Source of the DNA: Escherichia coli
GTDB taxonomy: Bacteria; Pseudomonadota; Gammaproteobacteria; Enterobacterales; Enterobacteriaceae
Strand: one strand, 5' to 3'
Assembly (NCBI RefSeq): GCF_024223415.1
Contig: NZ_CP100500.1
Length of the DNA: 64,000 nucleotides
In this document: positions 2,099 through 31,975 of the stretch, piece by piece
Position numbering within the stretch: position 1 is the stretch's first letter
Layout of the letters: each line of letters begins with the position of its first letter
Made by a program: the position numbers and the translations under genes
The notes under the pieces: model-generated
Seen by the model: the letters and a program-made list of their open reading frames with translations, nothing else
What the model was told of the DNA's origin: nothing
The model's database searches: none

Positions 2099-3310
2099 AT
2101 GCTTACCACCCTTATTTATCGTAGCCATATACGTGACGACGAACCTGTCAAAAAAATCGAAGAAATGGTTTCGATAGCAAATCGCAGGAACATGCAGTCT
2201 GACGTAACAGGGATCTTACTGTTTAATTGTTCTCATTTTTTCCAGCTTCTGGAAGGTCCGGAAGAACAGGTTAAAATGATATATCGGGCTATATGCCAGG
2301 CTCCACGGCACTATAATATTGTTGAGCTGCTGTGCGATTACGCGCCTGCTCGCCGTTTTGGCAAAGCGGGAATGGAATTATTTGATTTACGCCTGCACGA
2401 GCGAGATGACGTTTTACAGGCCGTATTCGACAAAGGCACATCAAAATTTCAGCTAACTTATGATGACAGAGCGCTACAATTTTTTCGTACTTTTGTCCTT
2501 GCAACCGAACAATCAACCTATTTCGAGATTCCTGCTGAAGACTCCTGGCTTTTTATCGCTGACGGATCTGATAAAGAACTTGATTCCTGTACCCTTTCAC
2601 CAAATATAAACAACCACTTTGCCTTTCATCCTATTGTTGATCCCTTATCGCGGCGGATAATCGCTTTTGAAGCCATTGTGCAAAAAAATGAAGACAGCCC
2701 GTCAGCTATAGCGGTTGGGCAGCGTAAAGACGGGGAAATCTACACAGCGGATCTCAAAAGTAAGGCGCTTGTATTCGCGATGGCACACGCACTTGAGCTC
2801 GGTGATAAAATGATATCAATCAATCTATTACCTATGACCCTGGTTAACGAGCCTGACGCAGTCTCTTTTTTACTTGATGAAATAAAGGCCAATGGTCTGG
2901 TGCCTGAACAAATCATCGTTGAATTTACTGAAAGTGAAGTCATATCTCGGTTTGATGAGTTTGCCGAAGCGGTTAAATCGCTAAAGGCTGCCGGTATCAG
3001 TGTAGCAATTGATCATTTTGGCGCAGGTTTTGCTGGTTTGTTACTCCTGTCACGCTTCCAGCCTGACAGAATTAAAATCAGTCAGGAATTGATTACCAAT
3101 GTTCATAAAAGCGGACCACGGCAGGCAATTATTCAGGCGATCATAAAATGCTGTACATCACTTGAAATTCAAGTCTCTGCTATGGGCGTGGCAACACCAG
3201 AAGAGTGGATGTGGCTTGAATCCGCAGGAATTGAGATGTTTCAGGGGGATCTGTTTGCTAAAGCTAAATTGAATGGTATCCCTTCCATAGCGTGGCCAGA
3301 AAAAAAATAA
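2099..3310 (+). CDS. bluF: BluF (YcgF), blue-light sensor with BLUF and degenerate EAL domains
   Basis: Internal ATG of ORF 2021-3310 gives the canonical 403 aa starting MLTTLIYRSHIRDDEP; BLUF-type N-terminus and EAL-like C-terminus. Confidence 0.9.
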   Translation: MLTTLIYRSHIRDDEPVKKIEEMVSIANRRNMQSDVTGILLFNCSHFFQLLEGPEEQVKMIYRAICQAPRHYNIVELLCDYAPARRFGKAGMELFDLRLHERDDVLQAVFDKGTSKFQLTYDDRALQFFRTFVLATEQSTYFEIPAEDSWLFIADGSDKELDSCTLSPNINNHFAFHPIVDPLSRRIIAFEAIVQKNEDSPSAIAVGQRKDGEIYTADLKSKALVFAMAHALELGDKMISINLLPMTLVNEPDAVSFLLDEIKANGLVPEQIIVEFTESEVISRFDEFAEAVKSLKAAGISVAIDHFGAGFAGLLLLSRFQPDRIKISQELITNVHKSGPRQAIIQAIIKCCTSLEIQVSAMGVATPEEWMWLESAGIEMFQGDLFAKAKLNGIPSIAWPEKK

Positions 3311-3505
3311 TTTTCAGCACATGATTTCATGTAAATCATCGTGAAAATGAATACGTTATGTTTAAATTTAATCCACATTAAAAATAATGTTTCATCCAAA
3401 TTAGCTGAAATCTTATTTATACTTTGTACAATTTTAGCGTATATTGTACAAAGTATTATTGGGTCGTGTACAGGCGACGGAGATTTATGACCGCAAGGAG
3501 GAATT

Positions 3506-14366: not shown

Positions 14367-14911
14367 TAACGAAAGTCGTTATGGTTGCCACCGATACTCC
14401 AAATTTGGGTATCACGAGTAAGCCCCAAAATCTGGGTGTTACTCTTACTACCCAAACTACGGGTAGTTTCCGTAGTTTCATGGTCGAGTTGCAGATCTGC
14501 AACTCCCCCATCAACCACAGGCGAATTTCCGCCTTCGGTCATTCCTTAATCATCTGCGTAATCATAATGATTATTCAGCCAGCTCAATTTTGAGCTTTGC
14601 TTTAAGTTCAGCGAGTTACCGCGCCGACTTCCTCAAATTGAGGTTTCCGAAAATATCAGTGGGTTAGCGATTAAGCAGATGGATAATTAACCTGCGAAAA
14701 TTTCGCAGGTTACATCAGCGACGTAATTCTCGCTGTTCCTGCCCGGAGGTGTCGACGAATTTCGTCGGAACCTAAGCCTGCCGGGAAGTCCGTACGTTAA
14801 ACGTACGGAGTTAATTCGACATCACACACTACGTTGTCAATTTGCAAAGGAGGGGCGGAAATCACCATACCTGCCACCCTGTCATACAGAAAGGGATTAC
14901 GATAATCGTAA
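14367..14911. repeat. Palindrome-dense noncoding block (at least eight perfect or near-perfect inverted repeats of 13-21 bp)
   Basis: Palindromes at 14367-14381, 14454-14478, 14486-14505, 14581-14596, 14631-14643, 14691-14709, 14752-14766, 14789-14809, 14897-14911; no convincing ORF. Confidence 0.6.
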
Positions 14912-20464: not shown

Positions 20465-21622
20465 TTAATCGTCGTCCTGTGGCAGTTCCAGAATCTTGAT
20501 CGCGTTCGAATCCACCACGCCACCGCCTAAATATTTCTGCGTGAAAATTTTGATGAAGCCCGGCTCTGTGATGTTGTCCGGTCTGGTGCGAACACCTGTT
20601 TCGTGATCAACAATGTAGTAACCGCGTTTGAAGTCACCCAGGGCAATAACGTTATCAGGCATAAACTCCAGATATTCGACCGGAAGGCCCAGCAACGTAT
20701 CAGGATCACCCGCCTGTAAACGGTCGCGCCAGATGTAATCACCGTTCGCGTTCTTCACCTTCTGAAGTTTTGCCGCCGTTGTGGAGTTAACCACCCATAC
20801 CGCGTTCTTGCGGTATTTTTTACGCAATGCAAATTTCAGGTCGATCAGCGGGTCCGCAGATGTCCACGCCAGACCGTGAGCGGGCTTGATAACCTGCAAC
20901 GTTCCGAAGTCGCGTTCTTTGTCGCTCTTCTCTGCACGGGGGACGGATAAAAAGCCTTTTGCTTTTTTGTCACCGTCGCCCACAACCAGATCGCTTTCTT
21001 CGGTTTCCGTGAAGGTGTCGCCAATCTCGGCCGTCAGCCATGAAAGGATGTCCACATCGGAAAAATCCACGATTTCCTGTGTGGTGCGCGGGTACGCATA
21101 GACCGGATACAGCTTAATGCTCACCTCGTTAATCTGCGGGGTGCTGGTCTGTTCGCGTGCCTTACCCTCTTCACCGTGGTTAACGGTCGCACCGCCAGCG
21201 GAAACAAGCTGCTTAAACTCGTTGCTGCTGATTTTCTTCACGGTACAGATGCGGCGCATGGTGGATTCATCCGCCAGCATTCGCATGATTTCGGTGTTCA
21301 GTTCGGGGATAACGGTATAACCACCATCAGCGGGAACGCCTGTACTTAATGCGCGGGTTTCACCTGTCAGAATGTAGTTGCGTAGTTCTGCGGGGTCAGT
21401 GGTCTGACTGCTTTTACCTGGCTTGCTGCGCTCTTCGTCTGCAATGGCTTCAAGGCGGGAAATGTCTTTATCGAGGGATTCAGCTTTAGCGCGTAATTCA
21501 TCAAATTTTGCGCCCTCAGCATCGTTAAGACTGCGGTTTTCTTTTTCCGCGTTCTCCAGCATGTCGCGCATCTGATTTTTAATGGCGGTTTTCTGCTGGC
21601 GTAATTCGATTATTCTCGGCAT
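20465..21622 (-). CDS. Major capsid protein, HK97 fold, with N-terminal coiled-coil scaffold (delta) domain
   Basis: ATG at 21622 gives MPRIIELRQQKTAIKNQMRDMLENAE... (delta domain) then capsid body; the longer ORF to 21667 would read through a terminator hairpin. Confidence 0.85.
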   Translation of the reverse strand: MPRIIELRQQKTAIKNQMRDMLENAEKENRSLNDAEGAKFDELRAKAESLDKDISRLEAIADEERSKPGKSSQTTDPAELRNYILTGETRALSTGVPADGGYTVIPELNTEIMRMLADESTMRRICTVKKISSNEFKQLVSAGGATVNHGEEGKAREQTSTPQINEVSIKLYPVYAYPRTTQEIVDFSDVDILSWLTAEIGDTFTETEESDLVVGDGDKKAKGFLSVPRAEKSDKERDFGTLQVIKPAHGLAWTSADPLIDLKFALRKKYRKNAVWVVNSTTAAKLQKVKNANGDYIWRDRLQAGDPDTLLGLPVEYLEFMPDNVIALGDFKRGYYIVDHETGVRTRPDNITEPGFIKIFTQKYLGGGVVDSNAIKILELPQDDD

Positions 21623-21660
21623 AAAAAAAAGTCCTGGGGTTAAGTAAGGAACTCCAGGAC
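21623..21660 (-). terminator. Intrinsic terminator on the minus strand directly abutting the capsid start codon
   Basis: Minus strand reads gtcctgg-(16 nt)-ccaggac followed by TTTTTTTT, then ATG of the capsid gene. Confidence 0.45.
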
Positions 21661-21837
21661 GCGGCAAAAACTCAACCGTTTTTCATAAGGAAATCAGCAA
21701 TCGCACCGATCGTTTTCCCGCCTGGTAATGAATATTGGCGAGCACATTAACAGGCGGGAAAGTGGCCCCAGCGTCCTGGCACCACGGGCGAGAATAATCA
21801 TGATTCAGTTCGAGTAAAATATGCCGATCCGCTCAGT

Positions 21838-21896
21838 GAACAACCTGGAACAACCACGAACAAATAATTTACAAAACCTGAAAAAATAAATAAACT
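21838..21896 (+). promoter_or_regulatory. Promoter of the 157-aa gene with phased upstream repeats: GAACAA x3 at 10-bp spacing, then -35 TTTACA, 17-bp spacer, -10 TAAACT
   Basis: GAACAA at 21838, 21848, 21858; TTTACA 21868-21873; TAAACT 21891-21896; AGGAGG SD at 21924 and ATG at 21938. Confidence 0.45.
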
Positions 21897-21937
21897 GTTC
21901 CGTACATTTTCTGCTCGTTAATCAGGAGGAACGAACT

Positions 21938-22411
21938 ATGTCAGAAAATGAACTGAAAAAAGCAATGTTCATTCAGCAACGATTGCAGATTCTCCACCTT
22001 GGTAAACACTATGATGAGTTCAGTGATTCTTACGTGTATGCCTGGGAGGCAGATGTTTATCCTTTCTTGCAGGATGGCGACGGAAGTATTCCTGCTCGCC
22101 CACATGAAATTTACGAAGAGTTTTTCGGCACATCTAAAAACAAAGCCAAAAAGATATACGATCGTCTGTGCAAAGCCTGGCACGACCAGGAGGCACTCAC
22201 ATTCTATAAACTAGAAAGTGAATATGGTGTAACAAGTAGCAGCATGCACAGATGGACACGAAGTGATTTACTTCACATCTGCCGCTATCTGTATCTTGAG
22301 GGGTGTTTCGATAAAGATTTCTGGGAAACATTACTGGAAAACGGAAAATGCCCAAGCGAAGCACTTTACCTTAGCGATGAATTTAATCGCGATACAGAGA
22401 TCGACTTCTAA
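21938..22411 (+). CDS. Hypothetical protein (157 aa), stand-alone opposite-strand cargo gene
   Basis: Strong SD and promoter, own bidirectional terminator; only plus-strand gene inside the structural/regulatory part of the island; no recognisable domain. Confidence 0.65.
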   Translation: MSENELKKAMFIQQRLQILHLGKHYDEFSDSYVYAWEADVYPFLQDGDGSIPARPHEIYEEFFGTSKNKAKKIYDRLCKAWHDQEALTFYKLESEYGVTSSSMHRWTRSDLLHICRYLYLEGCFDKDFWETLLENGKCPSEALYLSDEFNRDTEIDF

Positions 22412-22448
22412 AAAAATGGCCTGGAAAATACCAGGCCATTATTATTCT
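22411..22448. terminator. Bidirectional intrinsic terminator between convergent genes
   Basis: atggcctgg-aaaata-ccaggccat flanked by an A-run on one side and T-rich sequence on the other. Confidence 0.55.
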
Positions 22449-22695
22449 ACCGTTTCACGGGATCACGCATTCTGCGCCTTATTTTCCACAGATATTCGAT
22501 CATCGCTTCCACCTGCTCACGGTTGGTTGCGAAAATTTCCCCGGTCAGTGAGCTACGCAGAAAATCATGATGATCCACAAAAAATAACGCATCGGAAGAA
22601 AGCAGCCGGAGATATTTTTTTGCTGTCGTGCTTTCCAGATCATCAAAATCATGAAGCTTTTTATGTTGCTGGACTTCTTCAAATGTCACTGGCAT
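22447..22695 (-). CDS. Hypothetical protein (about 82 aa)
   Basis: Internal ATG (MPVTFEEVQQHKKLHDF...) downstream of the PerC-like gene. Confidence 0.45.
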   Translation of the reverse strand: MPVTFEEVQQHKKLHDFDDLESTTAKKYLRLLSSDALFFVDHHDFLRSSLTGEIFATNREQVEAMIEYLWKIRRRMRDPVKR

Positions 22696-22740
22696 GTTTC
22701 CTCCTGCTACCACGATACCAGAAACAGTTAACAACCGTTA

Positions 22741-23022
22741 TCAATTATCCCCTTTTTTAGGGTAGTTCCTGAACATCTCACCGCCAGGCTTCTGTAAGCC
22801 CATCCCGGTATGTGTGCGGTTTATGGCCTCTTTCAGTATTCCGAAATTATCCGGTATGACTGGTGGGCGTGCTGCCTTACGGATACATTCCGCGCGACGC
22901 TTTGCCACTTGTTCGCGCTCCTTGTCAGTGCTCACCAGCCACATAACATCAGCCCATCGCGCGGCCGCCCTCCGGTAAAATCCTTTCGCCTCCAGTTCCT
23001 CCGCTATCCGGTCATGTACCAT
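22741..23022 (-). CDS. PerC-family-like transcriptional regulator (tentative)
   Basis: About 93 aa from internal ATG: MVHDRIAEELEAKGFYRRAAARWADVMW...; the EAxGxxRRAAxxW motif resembles PerC-type activators. Confidence 0.4.
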   Translation of the reverse strand: MVHDRIAEELEAKGFYRRAAARWADVMWLVSTDKEREQVAKRRAECIRKAARPPVIPDNFGILKEAINRTHTGMGLQKPGGEMFRNYPKKGDN

Positions 23023-29478: not shown

Positions 29479-30600
29479 ATGGAATACCAACTCACTCTTA
29501 ACTGGCCCGATTTTCTTGAACGTCACTGGCAGAAACGCCCGGTGGTGTTAAAACGCGGCTTTAATAATTTTATTGACCCGATCTCTCCAGACGAGTTGGC
29601 GGGTCTGGCGATGGAAAGCGAAGTCGACAGTCGACTGGTCAGTCACCAGGATGGCAAATGGCAGGTCAGCCACGGTCCGTTCGAAAGCTACGATCATCTC
29701 GGTGAAACCAACTGGTCATTACTGGTACAGGCAGTGAACCACTGGCATGAGCCGACCGCCGCGCTGATGCGACCGTTCCGTGAACTACCGGACTGGCGTA
29801 TTGATGATCTGATGATCTCTTTTTCTGTACCTGGCGGCGGCGTCGGCCCGCATCTCGATCAGTACGACGTGTTTATCATTCAGGGTACCGGACGTCGTCG
29901 CTGGCGAGTGGGCGAAAAGCTGCAAATGAAACAGCACTGTCCGCACCCTGATCTGTTACAGGTCGATCCGTTCGAAGCCATCATCGATGAAGAGCTGGAG
30001 CCTGGCGATATTCTTTATATTCCGCCAGGATTCCCGCATGAAGGCTACGCGCTGGAAAATGCGATGAACTATTCCGTGGGTTTTCGCGCGCCAAATACGC
30101 GGGAATTAATTAGCGGATTTGCCGATTATGTGCTGCAACGTGAACTGGGCGGCAACTACTACAGCGATCCGGATGTTCCACCTCGCGCTCATCCTGCGGA
30201 CGTTCTGCCGCAAGAGATGGATAAACTGCGTGAGATGATGCTCGAATTGATCAACCAGCCGGAACACTTTAAGCAATGGTTTGGCGAGTTTATATCCCAG
30301 TCACGTCATGAACTGGATATCGCTCCGCCAGAGCCGCCTTATCAGCCGGATGAAATCTACGATGCGCTGAAACAAGGTGATGTGCTGGTGCGCCTGGGTG
30401 GTCTGCGCGTATTGCGCATTGGCGACGACGTGTATGCCAATGGTGAGAAGATCGATTCCCCGCACCGTCCGGCACTGGATGCACTCGCCAGCAACATTGC
30501 GCTGACTGCGGAGAATTTTGGCGATGCGCTGGAAGATCCGTCATTCCTCGCGATGCTCGCGGCGCTGGTCAATAGCGGGTATTGGTTCTTCGAAGGGTAA
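29479..30600 (+). CDS. roxA: Ribosomal protein uL16 arginine hydroxylase RoxA (YcfD), cupin/JmjC-like
   Basis: 373 aa from internal ATG, MEYQLTLNWPDFLERHWQKRP... Confidence 0.9.
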   Translation: MEYQLTLNWPDFLERHWQKRPVVLKRGFNNFIDPISPDELAGLAMESEVDSRLVSHQDGKWQVSHGPFESYDHLGETNWSLLVQAVNHWHEPTAALMRPFRELPDWRIDDLMISFSVPGGGVGPHLDQYDVFIIQGTGRRRWRVGEKLQMKQHCPHPDLLQVDPFEAIIDEELEPGDILYIPPGFPHEGYALENAMNYSVGFRAPNTRELISGFADYVLQRELGGNYYSDPDVPPRAHPADVLPQEMDKLREMMLELINQPEHFKQWFGEFISQSRHELDIAPPEPPYQPDEIYDALKQGDVLVRLGGLRVLRIGDDVYANGEKIDSPHRPALDALASNIALTAENFGDALEDPSFLAMLAALVNSGYWFFEG

Positions 30601-30611
30601 GTTTGGATTTA

Positions 30612-30680
30612 AGCCGGATGCGGCGCTGATTGCGCCTTATCGTGCCTGCATGCACTGAACGCCTGTAGGCACGATAAGTA
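30612..30680. repeat. REP-like palindromic element between roxA and pepT
   Basis: gccggatgcggcg...cgccttatc and cgtgcctgca...tgtaggcacg imperfect palindromes typical of REP sequences. Confidence 0.4.
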
Positions 30681-30745
30681 TGTGGACCAGTGTCAATATA
30701 ACGGTTTCATCCCGGTAATTGGCAGTCCACATACGCATCGGGCAA

Positions 30746-31975
30746 TCACGACTTCCGTTGCGCCGTTAACTCGGCAATACGGACGATCACCTGCACCGCT
30801 TTTTCCATACCTTCCAGAGTCACAAACTCATGCTTACCATGATAGTTGTAACCGCCAGTGAACAGGTTCGGGCACGGTAATCCCATAAACGACAACTGCG
30901 CGCCGTCGGTACCACCGCGGATCGGTTTCAGTTCCGGTTCAATATCGCAGTCACGCATCGCCTGCTGGGCGATATCGAGAATATGCGGATGCTCAACCAC
31001 TTTCTCGCACATATTGTAGTAACTGTCTTCAATCACCAATTCAATGTAGCAATCAGGATGTAACCCTTTGCCCACTTTTTTGGCGATCTCCATCATTTTA
31101 CGTTTACGCGCTTCAAACTGTTTACGGTCGAAATCACGGATGATGTAGTGCATATCGGCCCGTTCAACGGTGCCTTTCATGCTCGCCAGGTGATAGAAAC
31201 CTTCATAGCCTTCTGTCATTTCCGGGCTTTCATCCGCCGGAACTTCCGCATGAATACGTGCCGCCAGCGACAGCGCATTTACCATCACTCCTTTCGCCGT
31301 GCCCGGATGAACATTGTTACCGACAATTTTGATATTGACCGATGCGGCGTTGAAGTTTTCAAACTCCAGTTCGCCTACGCCACCACCATCAACAGTGTAA
31401 GCCCAGCGGGCATCGAAGGCATCAACATCAAAATGTTTCGCCCCTTTGCCCACTTCTTCATCCGGGGTAAAGGCGACGCGAATATCACCATGCGGAATGT
31501 TTTTCTGTTGCAATACCGCCAGCGCGGTCATGATTTCTGCAATACCTGCTTTGTCATCGGCACCTAACAAGGTTTTACCATCGGTGGTAATCAGCGTCTG
31601 ACCCAGTAGCTGATGCAGCACCGGGAACATAACCGGTGATAAAACTTCATCGCCGATACCCAGCGCAATATCGCCACCGCGATAGTTTTCAACAATTTGC
31701 GGATTCACATTTTTGCCGCTGCAATCCGGTGAGGTATCCACATGAGAAATAAAGCCAATCGCCGGGATATCGCCAGGGACGTTAGCCGGTAACGTCGCCA
31801 TCAAAGTGCCCTTCTCACTTAAGGTCACATTGATAAGCCCCATCTCTTCGAGCTGCTCTTTCAGCAGATGCAATAACTTCCATTGGCCTTCCGTGCTGGG
31901 AACCTGTCTCACCCCTGCTTTTGATTGGGTATCCAGAGACACGTAGTTCAAAAATCGCTCAAGTAGTTTATCCAT
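30746..31975 (-). CDS. pepT: Peptidase T (tripeptide aminopeptidase)
   Basis: 408 aa from internal [24 protein letters not shown]... Confidence 0.9.

Follow-up and report, generated by a model that had tools for sequence, protein, structure and literature searches.

We followed up a single plus-strand gene, the open reading frame ORF157, in a 64,000-nucleotide stretch of Escherichia coli DNA (contig NZ_CP100500.1), which is called the window below. According to RefSeq annotation, the gene lies in a capsid-forming phage-inducible chromosomal island (cf-PICI) that has inserted into tqsA, and the chromosome of E. coli GF60 matches the DNA around ORF157 at 100% identity. Our results are best explained by ORF157 being a moron-like accessory gene in an exchange slot between the early and late operons of the cf-PICI. 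As to function, we tentatively favour, with less than even confidence, a non-enzymatic binding protein that provides phage interference. An original prediction, made from the letters alone, had described ORF157 as an independently expressed cargo gene inserted between the two operons, and this cargo reading is well supported by the alternative states of the slot and by its low GC content. The early genes lie on the minus strand (integrase, AlpA, Icd-like proteins, RepA-family helicase, SSB, PerC-family regulator and ORF82) and are followed on the same strand by the genes for major capsid, protease, portal, head closure, connector, HNH, TerS and TerL. ORF157 is located between ORF82, in the early operon, and the major capsid gene, in the late operon, and the annotated gene order confirmed that it is the only plus-strand gene between the replication and packaging genes.

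A set of 5,426 complete E. coli genomes was used to assess the occupancy of the slot. Of these, 481 matched the region at least in part, most of which (about 470) carried only the capsid leader and a short backbone box that marks the left edge of the slot; ORF157 was found in 8 genomes, compared with 134 for the DNA of ORF82. The slot exhibited four states: empty (FORC_069, ETEC4085 and FDAARGOS_1249), occupied by ORF157, occupied by an unrelated plus-strand gene for a 168-aa protein, or reduced to a stub by internal deletion. The alternative cargo (WP_001053662.1, phrog_5789) has a hydrophobic C-terminal tail and sits in the same slot and orientation in E. coli CU568-3 (locus L016 of our set, 2966-3472) and E. 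coli LS45 (L018, 2965-3471). That it might be a divergent ORF157 homolog was ruled out by an hhalign probability of 0.2% against the family. The stub (MSENELKKAMFIQQHF, then a stop) has 16 codons with promoter, Shine-Dalgarno (SD) sequence and terminator intact, and was present in the finished genome of E. coli TUM1886 (L073, about 1740-1790) and in an IMG/VR contig (L035, about 1190-1260). In L035 it sits in the second, tandemly duplicated copy of an ORF157-ORF82-PerC segment; this duplication may be real or an assembly artefact. These observations show that ORF157 is optional for the island. Moreover, GC content is about 0.42-0.44 across positions 21600-22800, compared with 0.50-0.61 in the flanks.

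The variable region beside the cf-PICI packaging module is expected to hold immune systems (10.1101/2025.02.11.637232), and accessory ("immune") hotspots of PICIs and cf-PICIs have been attributed to Fillol-Salom et al. 2022, as summarised in 10.1101/2025.02.11.637232 and PMC11364771. ORF157 lies in the variable region directly flanking the packaging module, and the occupancy of its slot varies between otherwise related islands. The slot further resembles these hotspots in its unrelated alternative cargos, lower GC content and independent transcription. Unlike the cargo of PICI immune hotspots, ORF157 is a candidate only, and PADLOC models do not recognise it. ORF157 fits a known category, satellite hotspot cargo, but no known protein family.

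The genome scan reached close relatives only, and ORF157 homologs were also found in 35 IMG/VR loci on viral or satellite contigs. The homolog, at 48-99% identity, occupied the same slot on the plus strand in 27 of the 35, usually 260-300 bp from the start of the minus-strand capsid gene. These 27 loci are elements of 12-17 kb whose capsids are 63-75% identical to that of the window, and two further loci are truncated cf-PICIs. A Salmonella island and a 14.2-kb metagenomic cf-PICI show the same layout, with homologs at 56% and 62% identity, respectively. The gene thus co-occurs with this island type in other genomes. The results refine the original prediction: the position between the early and late operons stands, while the notion of a sporadic insert does not, given the same slot in 27 of the 35 loci. 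Compared across these islands, ORF157 is a long-standing occupant of the early/late junction in a broad cf-PICI lineage. It differs in this from typical PICI hotspot cargo, being kept in place across islands with clearly diverged capsids and not sporadic.

The expression signals of ORF157 were examined in the window (Table 1) and in 26 distinct diverged copies of the gene. The -35 hexamer TTTACA (21868-21873 in the window) was found in 24 of the 26 copies. At exactly 17 bp from it, 22 of the 24 box-carrying copies have TAnnnT; in the remaining two the distance is 16 or 18 bp, and the hexamer ends 31-41 nt 5' of the ATG. About 2.2 promoters matching as well as that of the window are expected by chance in the 1.5 kb scanned, and the single sequence is not significant. 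The earlier label "near-consensus" was therefore overstated for a match of 9 in 12, with about two expected by chance, but the promoter itself is supported by a geometry kept across diverged copies. The strong SD sequence was confirmed, and purine-rich SD sequences occur in the diverged copies. The hairpin downstream scored as terminator-like on both strands, in agreement with the proposed bidirectional terminator. It has a clear T-run on the minus strand and so terminates the convergent early operon; it insulates ORF157 from that operon. An equivalent GGCCTGG...CCAGGCC-type hairpin is located 3' of the stop codon in nearly all of the 26 copies. Because the -35/-10 spacing, SD sequence and hairpin are conserved in diverged copies, there is good comparative evidence that ORF157 forms an independent transcription unit.

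The gene had also been credited with a phased operator of its own, three GAACAA repeats immediately upstream of the -35. The repeats are present with 10-bp phasing, and the pattern is unique in the window and was reproduced in 0 of 100 shuffles. However, repeats and -35 lie in a backbone box that is also kept in islands without ORF157, and the assignment to the gene itself was not upheld. An alignment showed the repeats and TTTACAAAA to be common to the window, the occupied island KFu019, which has a different capsid leader, and the empty island FORC_069. The box, ACGAACAAATAATTTACAAAA, is conserved across eight cf-PICIs, including Salmonella, metagenomic, different-cargo and three empty islands; its 17-mer core is exact in 28 cf-PICI loci, empty and alternative-cargo loci among them; and L002, L015 and L017, all of them empty islands, have the repeats as well. 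The -35 of ORF157 is inside this box and the -10, TAAACT (21891-21896), in cargo-specific DNA. In the empty islands the box runs straight into the early-operon terminator and no -10 is found there; the cargo therefore uses the backbone -35 together with a -10 of its own. The GAACAA repeats are most likely part of the late-operon control region, and repeats and box together are probably a late-operon control site.

Table 1. Positions in the window of ORF157, its signals and the adjoining genes.
Feature	Position	Strand	Remarks
Major capsid gene	20465-21622	-	Starts the packaging (late) operon; divergent from ORF157
GAACAA repeats (three)	21838-21863		Starts at 21838, 21848 and 21858, 10-bp spacing; TTGTTC three times on the late-operon strand
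Backbone box ACGAACAAATAATTTACAAAA	21856-21876		Exact left edge of the variable slot
Sigma-70-like promoter	21868-21896	+	TTTACA-17-TAAACT, 9/12 match to consensus
Cargo-specific DNA, approximate extent	21887-22446		Own -10, 5' untranslated region, ORF157 and hairpin; from island alignments and low GC
Shine-Dalgarno AGGAGG	21924-21929	+	8 nt before ATG
ORF157 coding sequence	21938-22411	+	157 aa; "hypothetical protein" in RefSeq, E. coli GF60
GC-rich hairpin GGCCTGG...CCAGGCC	22415-22440	both	10-bp stem; terminator between ORF157 and the early operon
ORF82	22447-22695	-	82 aa, phrog_1957; last early-operon gene, convergent with ORF157

ORF157 encodes an acidic protein of 18.7 kDa (pI 4.93; family median about 5). 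That it has no recognisable motif, as first noted, was borne out by searches against PHROGs, NCBIfam, PADLOC and Pfam, none of which gave a significant match, and PDB sequence searches with two profiles returned only chance-level matches. A literature search by accession found no paper naming these proteins. The reported lack of a transmembrane segment also held, with a maximum of 0.23 in the 19-aa Kyte-Doolittle window. Close homologs form 20 clusters within Enterobacterales, all of 156-158 aa and with 34 invariant columns. The open reading frame call and the RefSeq annotation agree with the original prediction that this is a real gene, and conservation of this kind establishes it as one under selection.

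The AlphaFold model of ORF157 is confident (pLDDT 89.6, pTM 0.85) and all-helical. Foldseek against AFDB50 retrieved about 30 proteins, all of them ORF157 family members, and beyond a partial winged-helix-like match the predicted structure has no structural neighbour. It lacks a beta-wing, and the helix at the "recognition" position carries a net charge of 0. Residues that are near-invariant throughout the family are mostly aromatic or aliphatic (A35, W36, P42, F63, F89, L111, Y117, L120, W129 and P139, together with the charged E93, R108, R116 and E141) and do not look catalytic, consistent with the earlier remark that no catalytic signature is obvious. Because of this residue pattern and the lack of any catalytic-family match, the comparison suggests a non-enzymatic mode of action.

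Searching 1.84 billion representatives with a profile yielded 350 clusters at a threshold of E<=1e-3, or 236 when it was set at E<=1e-10, and Pfam found no shared family among 106 members. These results show that acidic, all-helical domains of about 150 aa make up a large unannotated family, of which ORF157 is the stand-alone form. An N-terminal extension is present in 28 of the 150 top representatives, mostly about 45-60 aa long and holding only a DNA-binding domain, which Pfam and NCBIfam assigned to Phd/YefM (above the NCBIfam cutoff), CopG-type ribbon-helix-helix (RHH), MazE/AbrB or winged helix-turn-helix (wHTH; HTH_43). Behind such a DNA-binding head, the ORF157 domain sits where the neutralising region of a type II antitoxin normally sits. 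The gene 17 bp downstream of the MazE fusion encodes a protein of 283 aa that matches PemK/MazF weakly (i-Evalue 0.012). A Microvirga RHH fusion has an AbiD/PD-T4-5-like gene downstream, and DISARM drmC is found in the same locus. Three other fused members are solo genes. The first is flanked by yacG and an acyltransferase gene, the second by a radical-SAM gene and an SBP gene, and the third is found in a Tn7-like element, where it diverges from a CBASS operon.

Stand-alone members were found mainly in mobile elements and beside defence genes. One, in Citrobacter youngae ATCC 29220 (L022, 8914-11716), adjoins a short prokaryotic Argonaute (pAgo) with its Aga-REase partner, and a TIR-like neighbour was also found. 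The two genes in L022 lie immediately downstream of the family member and convergent with it; the pAgo matched PADLOC pAgo_I at E=5e-183, and the Aga-REase/APAZ partner, which has an SMEK N-terminal domain, matched at E=4e-166. Further members occur at the int-proximal end of P2/186-like prophages, in a Mu-like prophage, in Vibrio conjugative plasmids and in an integrative and conjugative element. In a P2-like prophage, a member fills the gap from tail-fibre gene G to sheath gene FI, presumably the position of the non-essential Z/fun gene in P2. PMC9122126 covers the gpA-gpQ hotspot of P2 and gives no confirmation of a Z/fun hotspot. No partner gene recurs across the contexts of the family. 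A 61%-identical homolog in Enterobacter sp. BIGb0383 (L020, 5835-8474) is the last of four close, co-directional genes, after a ParA-like ATPase (278 aa) and two proteins of 164 and 238 aa for which we can name no function; the four may form a module, and none of them matched PADLOC. Small upstream open reading frames in L069, L070 and L071 were considered as split DNA-binding partners and rejected by reading the sequences, with no profile search made; one resembles a truncated PIN C-terminus and the others a two-transmembrane peptide.

The function that we tentatively favour would work as follows. ORF157 would be expressed from the quiescent island, and the protein would bind its target stoichiometrically, without catalysis. 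The target would most likely be a phage or helper protein, and the resulting interference or immunity would benefit both host and island. The box that holds the -35 of ORF157 is upstream of the late operon, and ORF157 could therefore be turned off when that operon is activated on induction. The mobile-element and defence neighbourhoods of the family, with pAgo, CBASS, AbiD-like and TIR-like genes, were counted in favour of phage interference, as were the published view of this region and the Tai precedent described below. Several points weigh against it. ORF157 has no homology to any known defence protein, as the database searches above indicate, and none of 50,697 phage records was matched by tblastn. 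Association with neighbouring genes is weak evidence, as such hotspots also carry anti-defence and unrelated genes, and some family members stand alone among housekeeping genes. The prototype cf-PICI does not interfere with its helper. The promoter-occlusion switch is purely inferred, and the Phd/YefM, RHH and MazE fusions point more naturally to an antitoxin-like role.

This antitoxin-like alternative, which was absent from the original prediction, is raised by the family fusions to antitoxin-type DNA-binding domains, and it is the main rival to phage interference, although on balance we consider it rather unlikely. ORF157 would then be an orphan neutraliser with an anti-addiction or anti-defence role, its domain being a folded toxin-binding module; the satellite copy would counter a toxin or Abi effector of the host or of a phage, so that island and helper complete their cycle or establish in new hosts. 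Consistent with this, most of the N-terminal extensions are of antitoxin type, the MazE and Microvirga RHH fusions precede the PemK/MazF-like and AbiD-like genes described above, ORF157 and its family are acidic, and one AFDB member is labelled 'SocA-like Panacea domain'. Against it, ORF157 itself has none of the N-terminal antitoxin DNA-binding domains (RHH, Phd, AbrB/MazE or HTH) and no co-directional neighbour. An adjacent cognate toxin gene is not found in the window and is possible for just two fused members, the MazF-like match of one of them being weak. The three solo fusions and the lack of a recurrent partner also argue against a neutraliser, and none of the 106 members tested matched Pfam DUF4065.

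It is also unlikely, and somewhat more so, that ORF157 has another accessory function unrelated to phage conflict or is a selfish passenger without a measurable phenotype. The lack of functional homology of any kind, the members in housekeeping neighbourhoods and the natural loss allele would agree with such a role. Full-length conservation with its invariant positions across Enterobacterales, a family of about 350 clusters, conserved expression signals and a strong bias to mobile-element hotspots and defence neighbours argue against it.

A regulator of the island life cycle, that is, a winged-helix-type factor repressing or timing the late operon or modulating induction, appears improbable. 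ORF157 persists at the junction in many cf-PICIs, and the 315-bp intergenic region that it shares with the capsid operon holds the box and the phased repeats. Yet box and repeats are equally conserved in the far commoner islands without ORF157 (about 470 genomes compared with 8), and ORF157 therefore cannot be their cognate regulator. The existence of a deletion allele, the acidic protein with an uncharged recognition-position helix, the predicted fold without a beta-wing, and homologs in plasmids, prophages and chromosomes where such an operon is absent likewise argue against regulation. Finally, a toxin-antitoxin-like pair of ORF157 with the convergent ORF82 is essentially excluded: the arrangement recurs in diverged cf-PICIs, but an ORF82 homolog is detectable in only 13 of the 27 slot-conserved loci, ORF82 DNA is far commoner than ORF157 in E. 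coli (134 genomes compared with 8), no ORF82 relative accompanies the family outside cf-PICIs, and ORF82, rejected as a partner on this co-occurrence, is thus the terminal gene of the early operon.

We compared ORF157, read as a phage-interference gene, with known systems. Tai (tail assembly inhibition) of phage phi80 is an opposite-strand immunity gene expressed in the lysogen, a 'noncontiguous operon' (PMC11364771). Most Tai proteins are encoded by phages, phi80 among them. ORF157 is likewise a small opposite-strand gene amid unidirectional lytic operons, a resemblance of layout only. It is also a single protein without an enzymatic motif, and by analogy its expression would be expected while the element is quiescent and would be damped once the flanking operon becomes active. 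The proteins differ in size (26 kDa for TaiEcA, 18.7 kDa for ORF157), and membership in Tai fails at the BLAST level, with no tblastn match in the phage records searched, among which the presence of phi80 is unverified. For a cf-PICI, which needs the tails of its helper, inhibiting tail assembly would be self-defeating if the gene were not switched off.

Panacea/DUF4065 (PanA; PMC8832971) is similar: it too is a compact helical domain, about 150 aa long, that is carried by phages and mobile elements, in some cases has a DNA-binding domain fused at its N-terminus, and is found beside diverse neighbours. Identity with Panacea, suggested by the one UniProt label, was rejected on sequence and fold: neither ORF157 nor the 106 family members matched Pfam PF13274 at E<=0.1. 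Bicistronic pairing with a toxin, as in Panacea, was likewise not seen, there being no co-directional neighbour of ORF157 in the window and no recurrent partner in the family. One could imagine the family as an unrecognised protein-binding immune or antitoxin domain with a fold of its own and a functional analogue of Panacea. It would act as a single-gene module, either by itself or with an exchangeable RHH, Phd, MazE or wHTH head that provides autoregulation. An entire cf-PICI lineage would have fixed it at the early/late junction, where a promoter using the backbone -35 would keep it on when the island is dormant and off during packaging; taken as a whole, this picture is speculative and unlikely.

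In fusions of anti-CRISPR (Acr) and Aca proteins, an inhibitor domain is joined to a small DNA-binding module and regulates itself. The ORF157-type domain similarly exists alone or fused to a small DNA-binding module, which would give autoregulation, and one family member has a weak Aca2/YdiL match. Unlike the Acr-Aca proteins, ORF157 has no anti-CRISPR or anti-defence homology, and nothing links it to CRISPR.

Further observations concern the surroundings of the gene. ORF82 received no Pfam or NCBIfam assignment, and its homologs in the Salmonella and metagenomic (L027) cf-PICIs are 34-44% identical to it. Just upstream of ORF82, the early operon holds the gene for the PerC-family transcriptional regulator (22741-23022, minus strand), a position taken by a ProQ/FinO-family gene in some related islands. 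The island splits tqsA, an AI-2 transporter gene, into fragments at about 14439-14582 and 30149-31054, which RefSeq annotates as pseudogenes flanking the element, and an IS200C transposase gene lies a few kb beyond the left end of the island. The untranslated leader that separates the box from the capsid start codon contains a 17-nt inverted repeat at 21714-21761 (TTTCCCGCCTGGTAATG / CATTAACAGGCGGGAAA, 94% complementary, 14-nt gap), which could be an RNA structure or a late-operon operator. An Rfam scan of the island gave nothing credible, the matches being symR-like (E=0.59) and manA-like (E=0.058), both far under the gathering scores.

Taken together, ORF157 is a reasonable candidate for an anti-phage or antitoxin-like gene. 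A candidate immunity gene in this slot will not surprise a specialist; it is the size of the family, its orphan fold, its exchangeable antitoxin-type heads and the natural controls that make it a worthwhile and inexpensive target. A phenotype test is made simple by the natural knockout in TUM1886 and by the empty and alternative-cargo islands, which serve as comparators. The family itself, an unannotated domain of about 350 clusters with no structural neighbour, four kinds of antitoxin-type DNA-binding fusion, and repeated pAgo, CBASS, Abi and TIR neighbours, shows the features by which new defence or antitoxin modules were foreshadowed in the past. The cf-PICIs are recently recognised and widespread phage satellites, and the contents of their accessory slots have been little explored. 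The -35 provided by the backbone points to a general way in which this slot may express whichever plus-strand cargo lands there.

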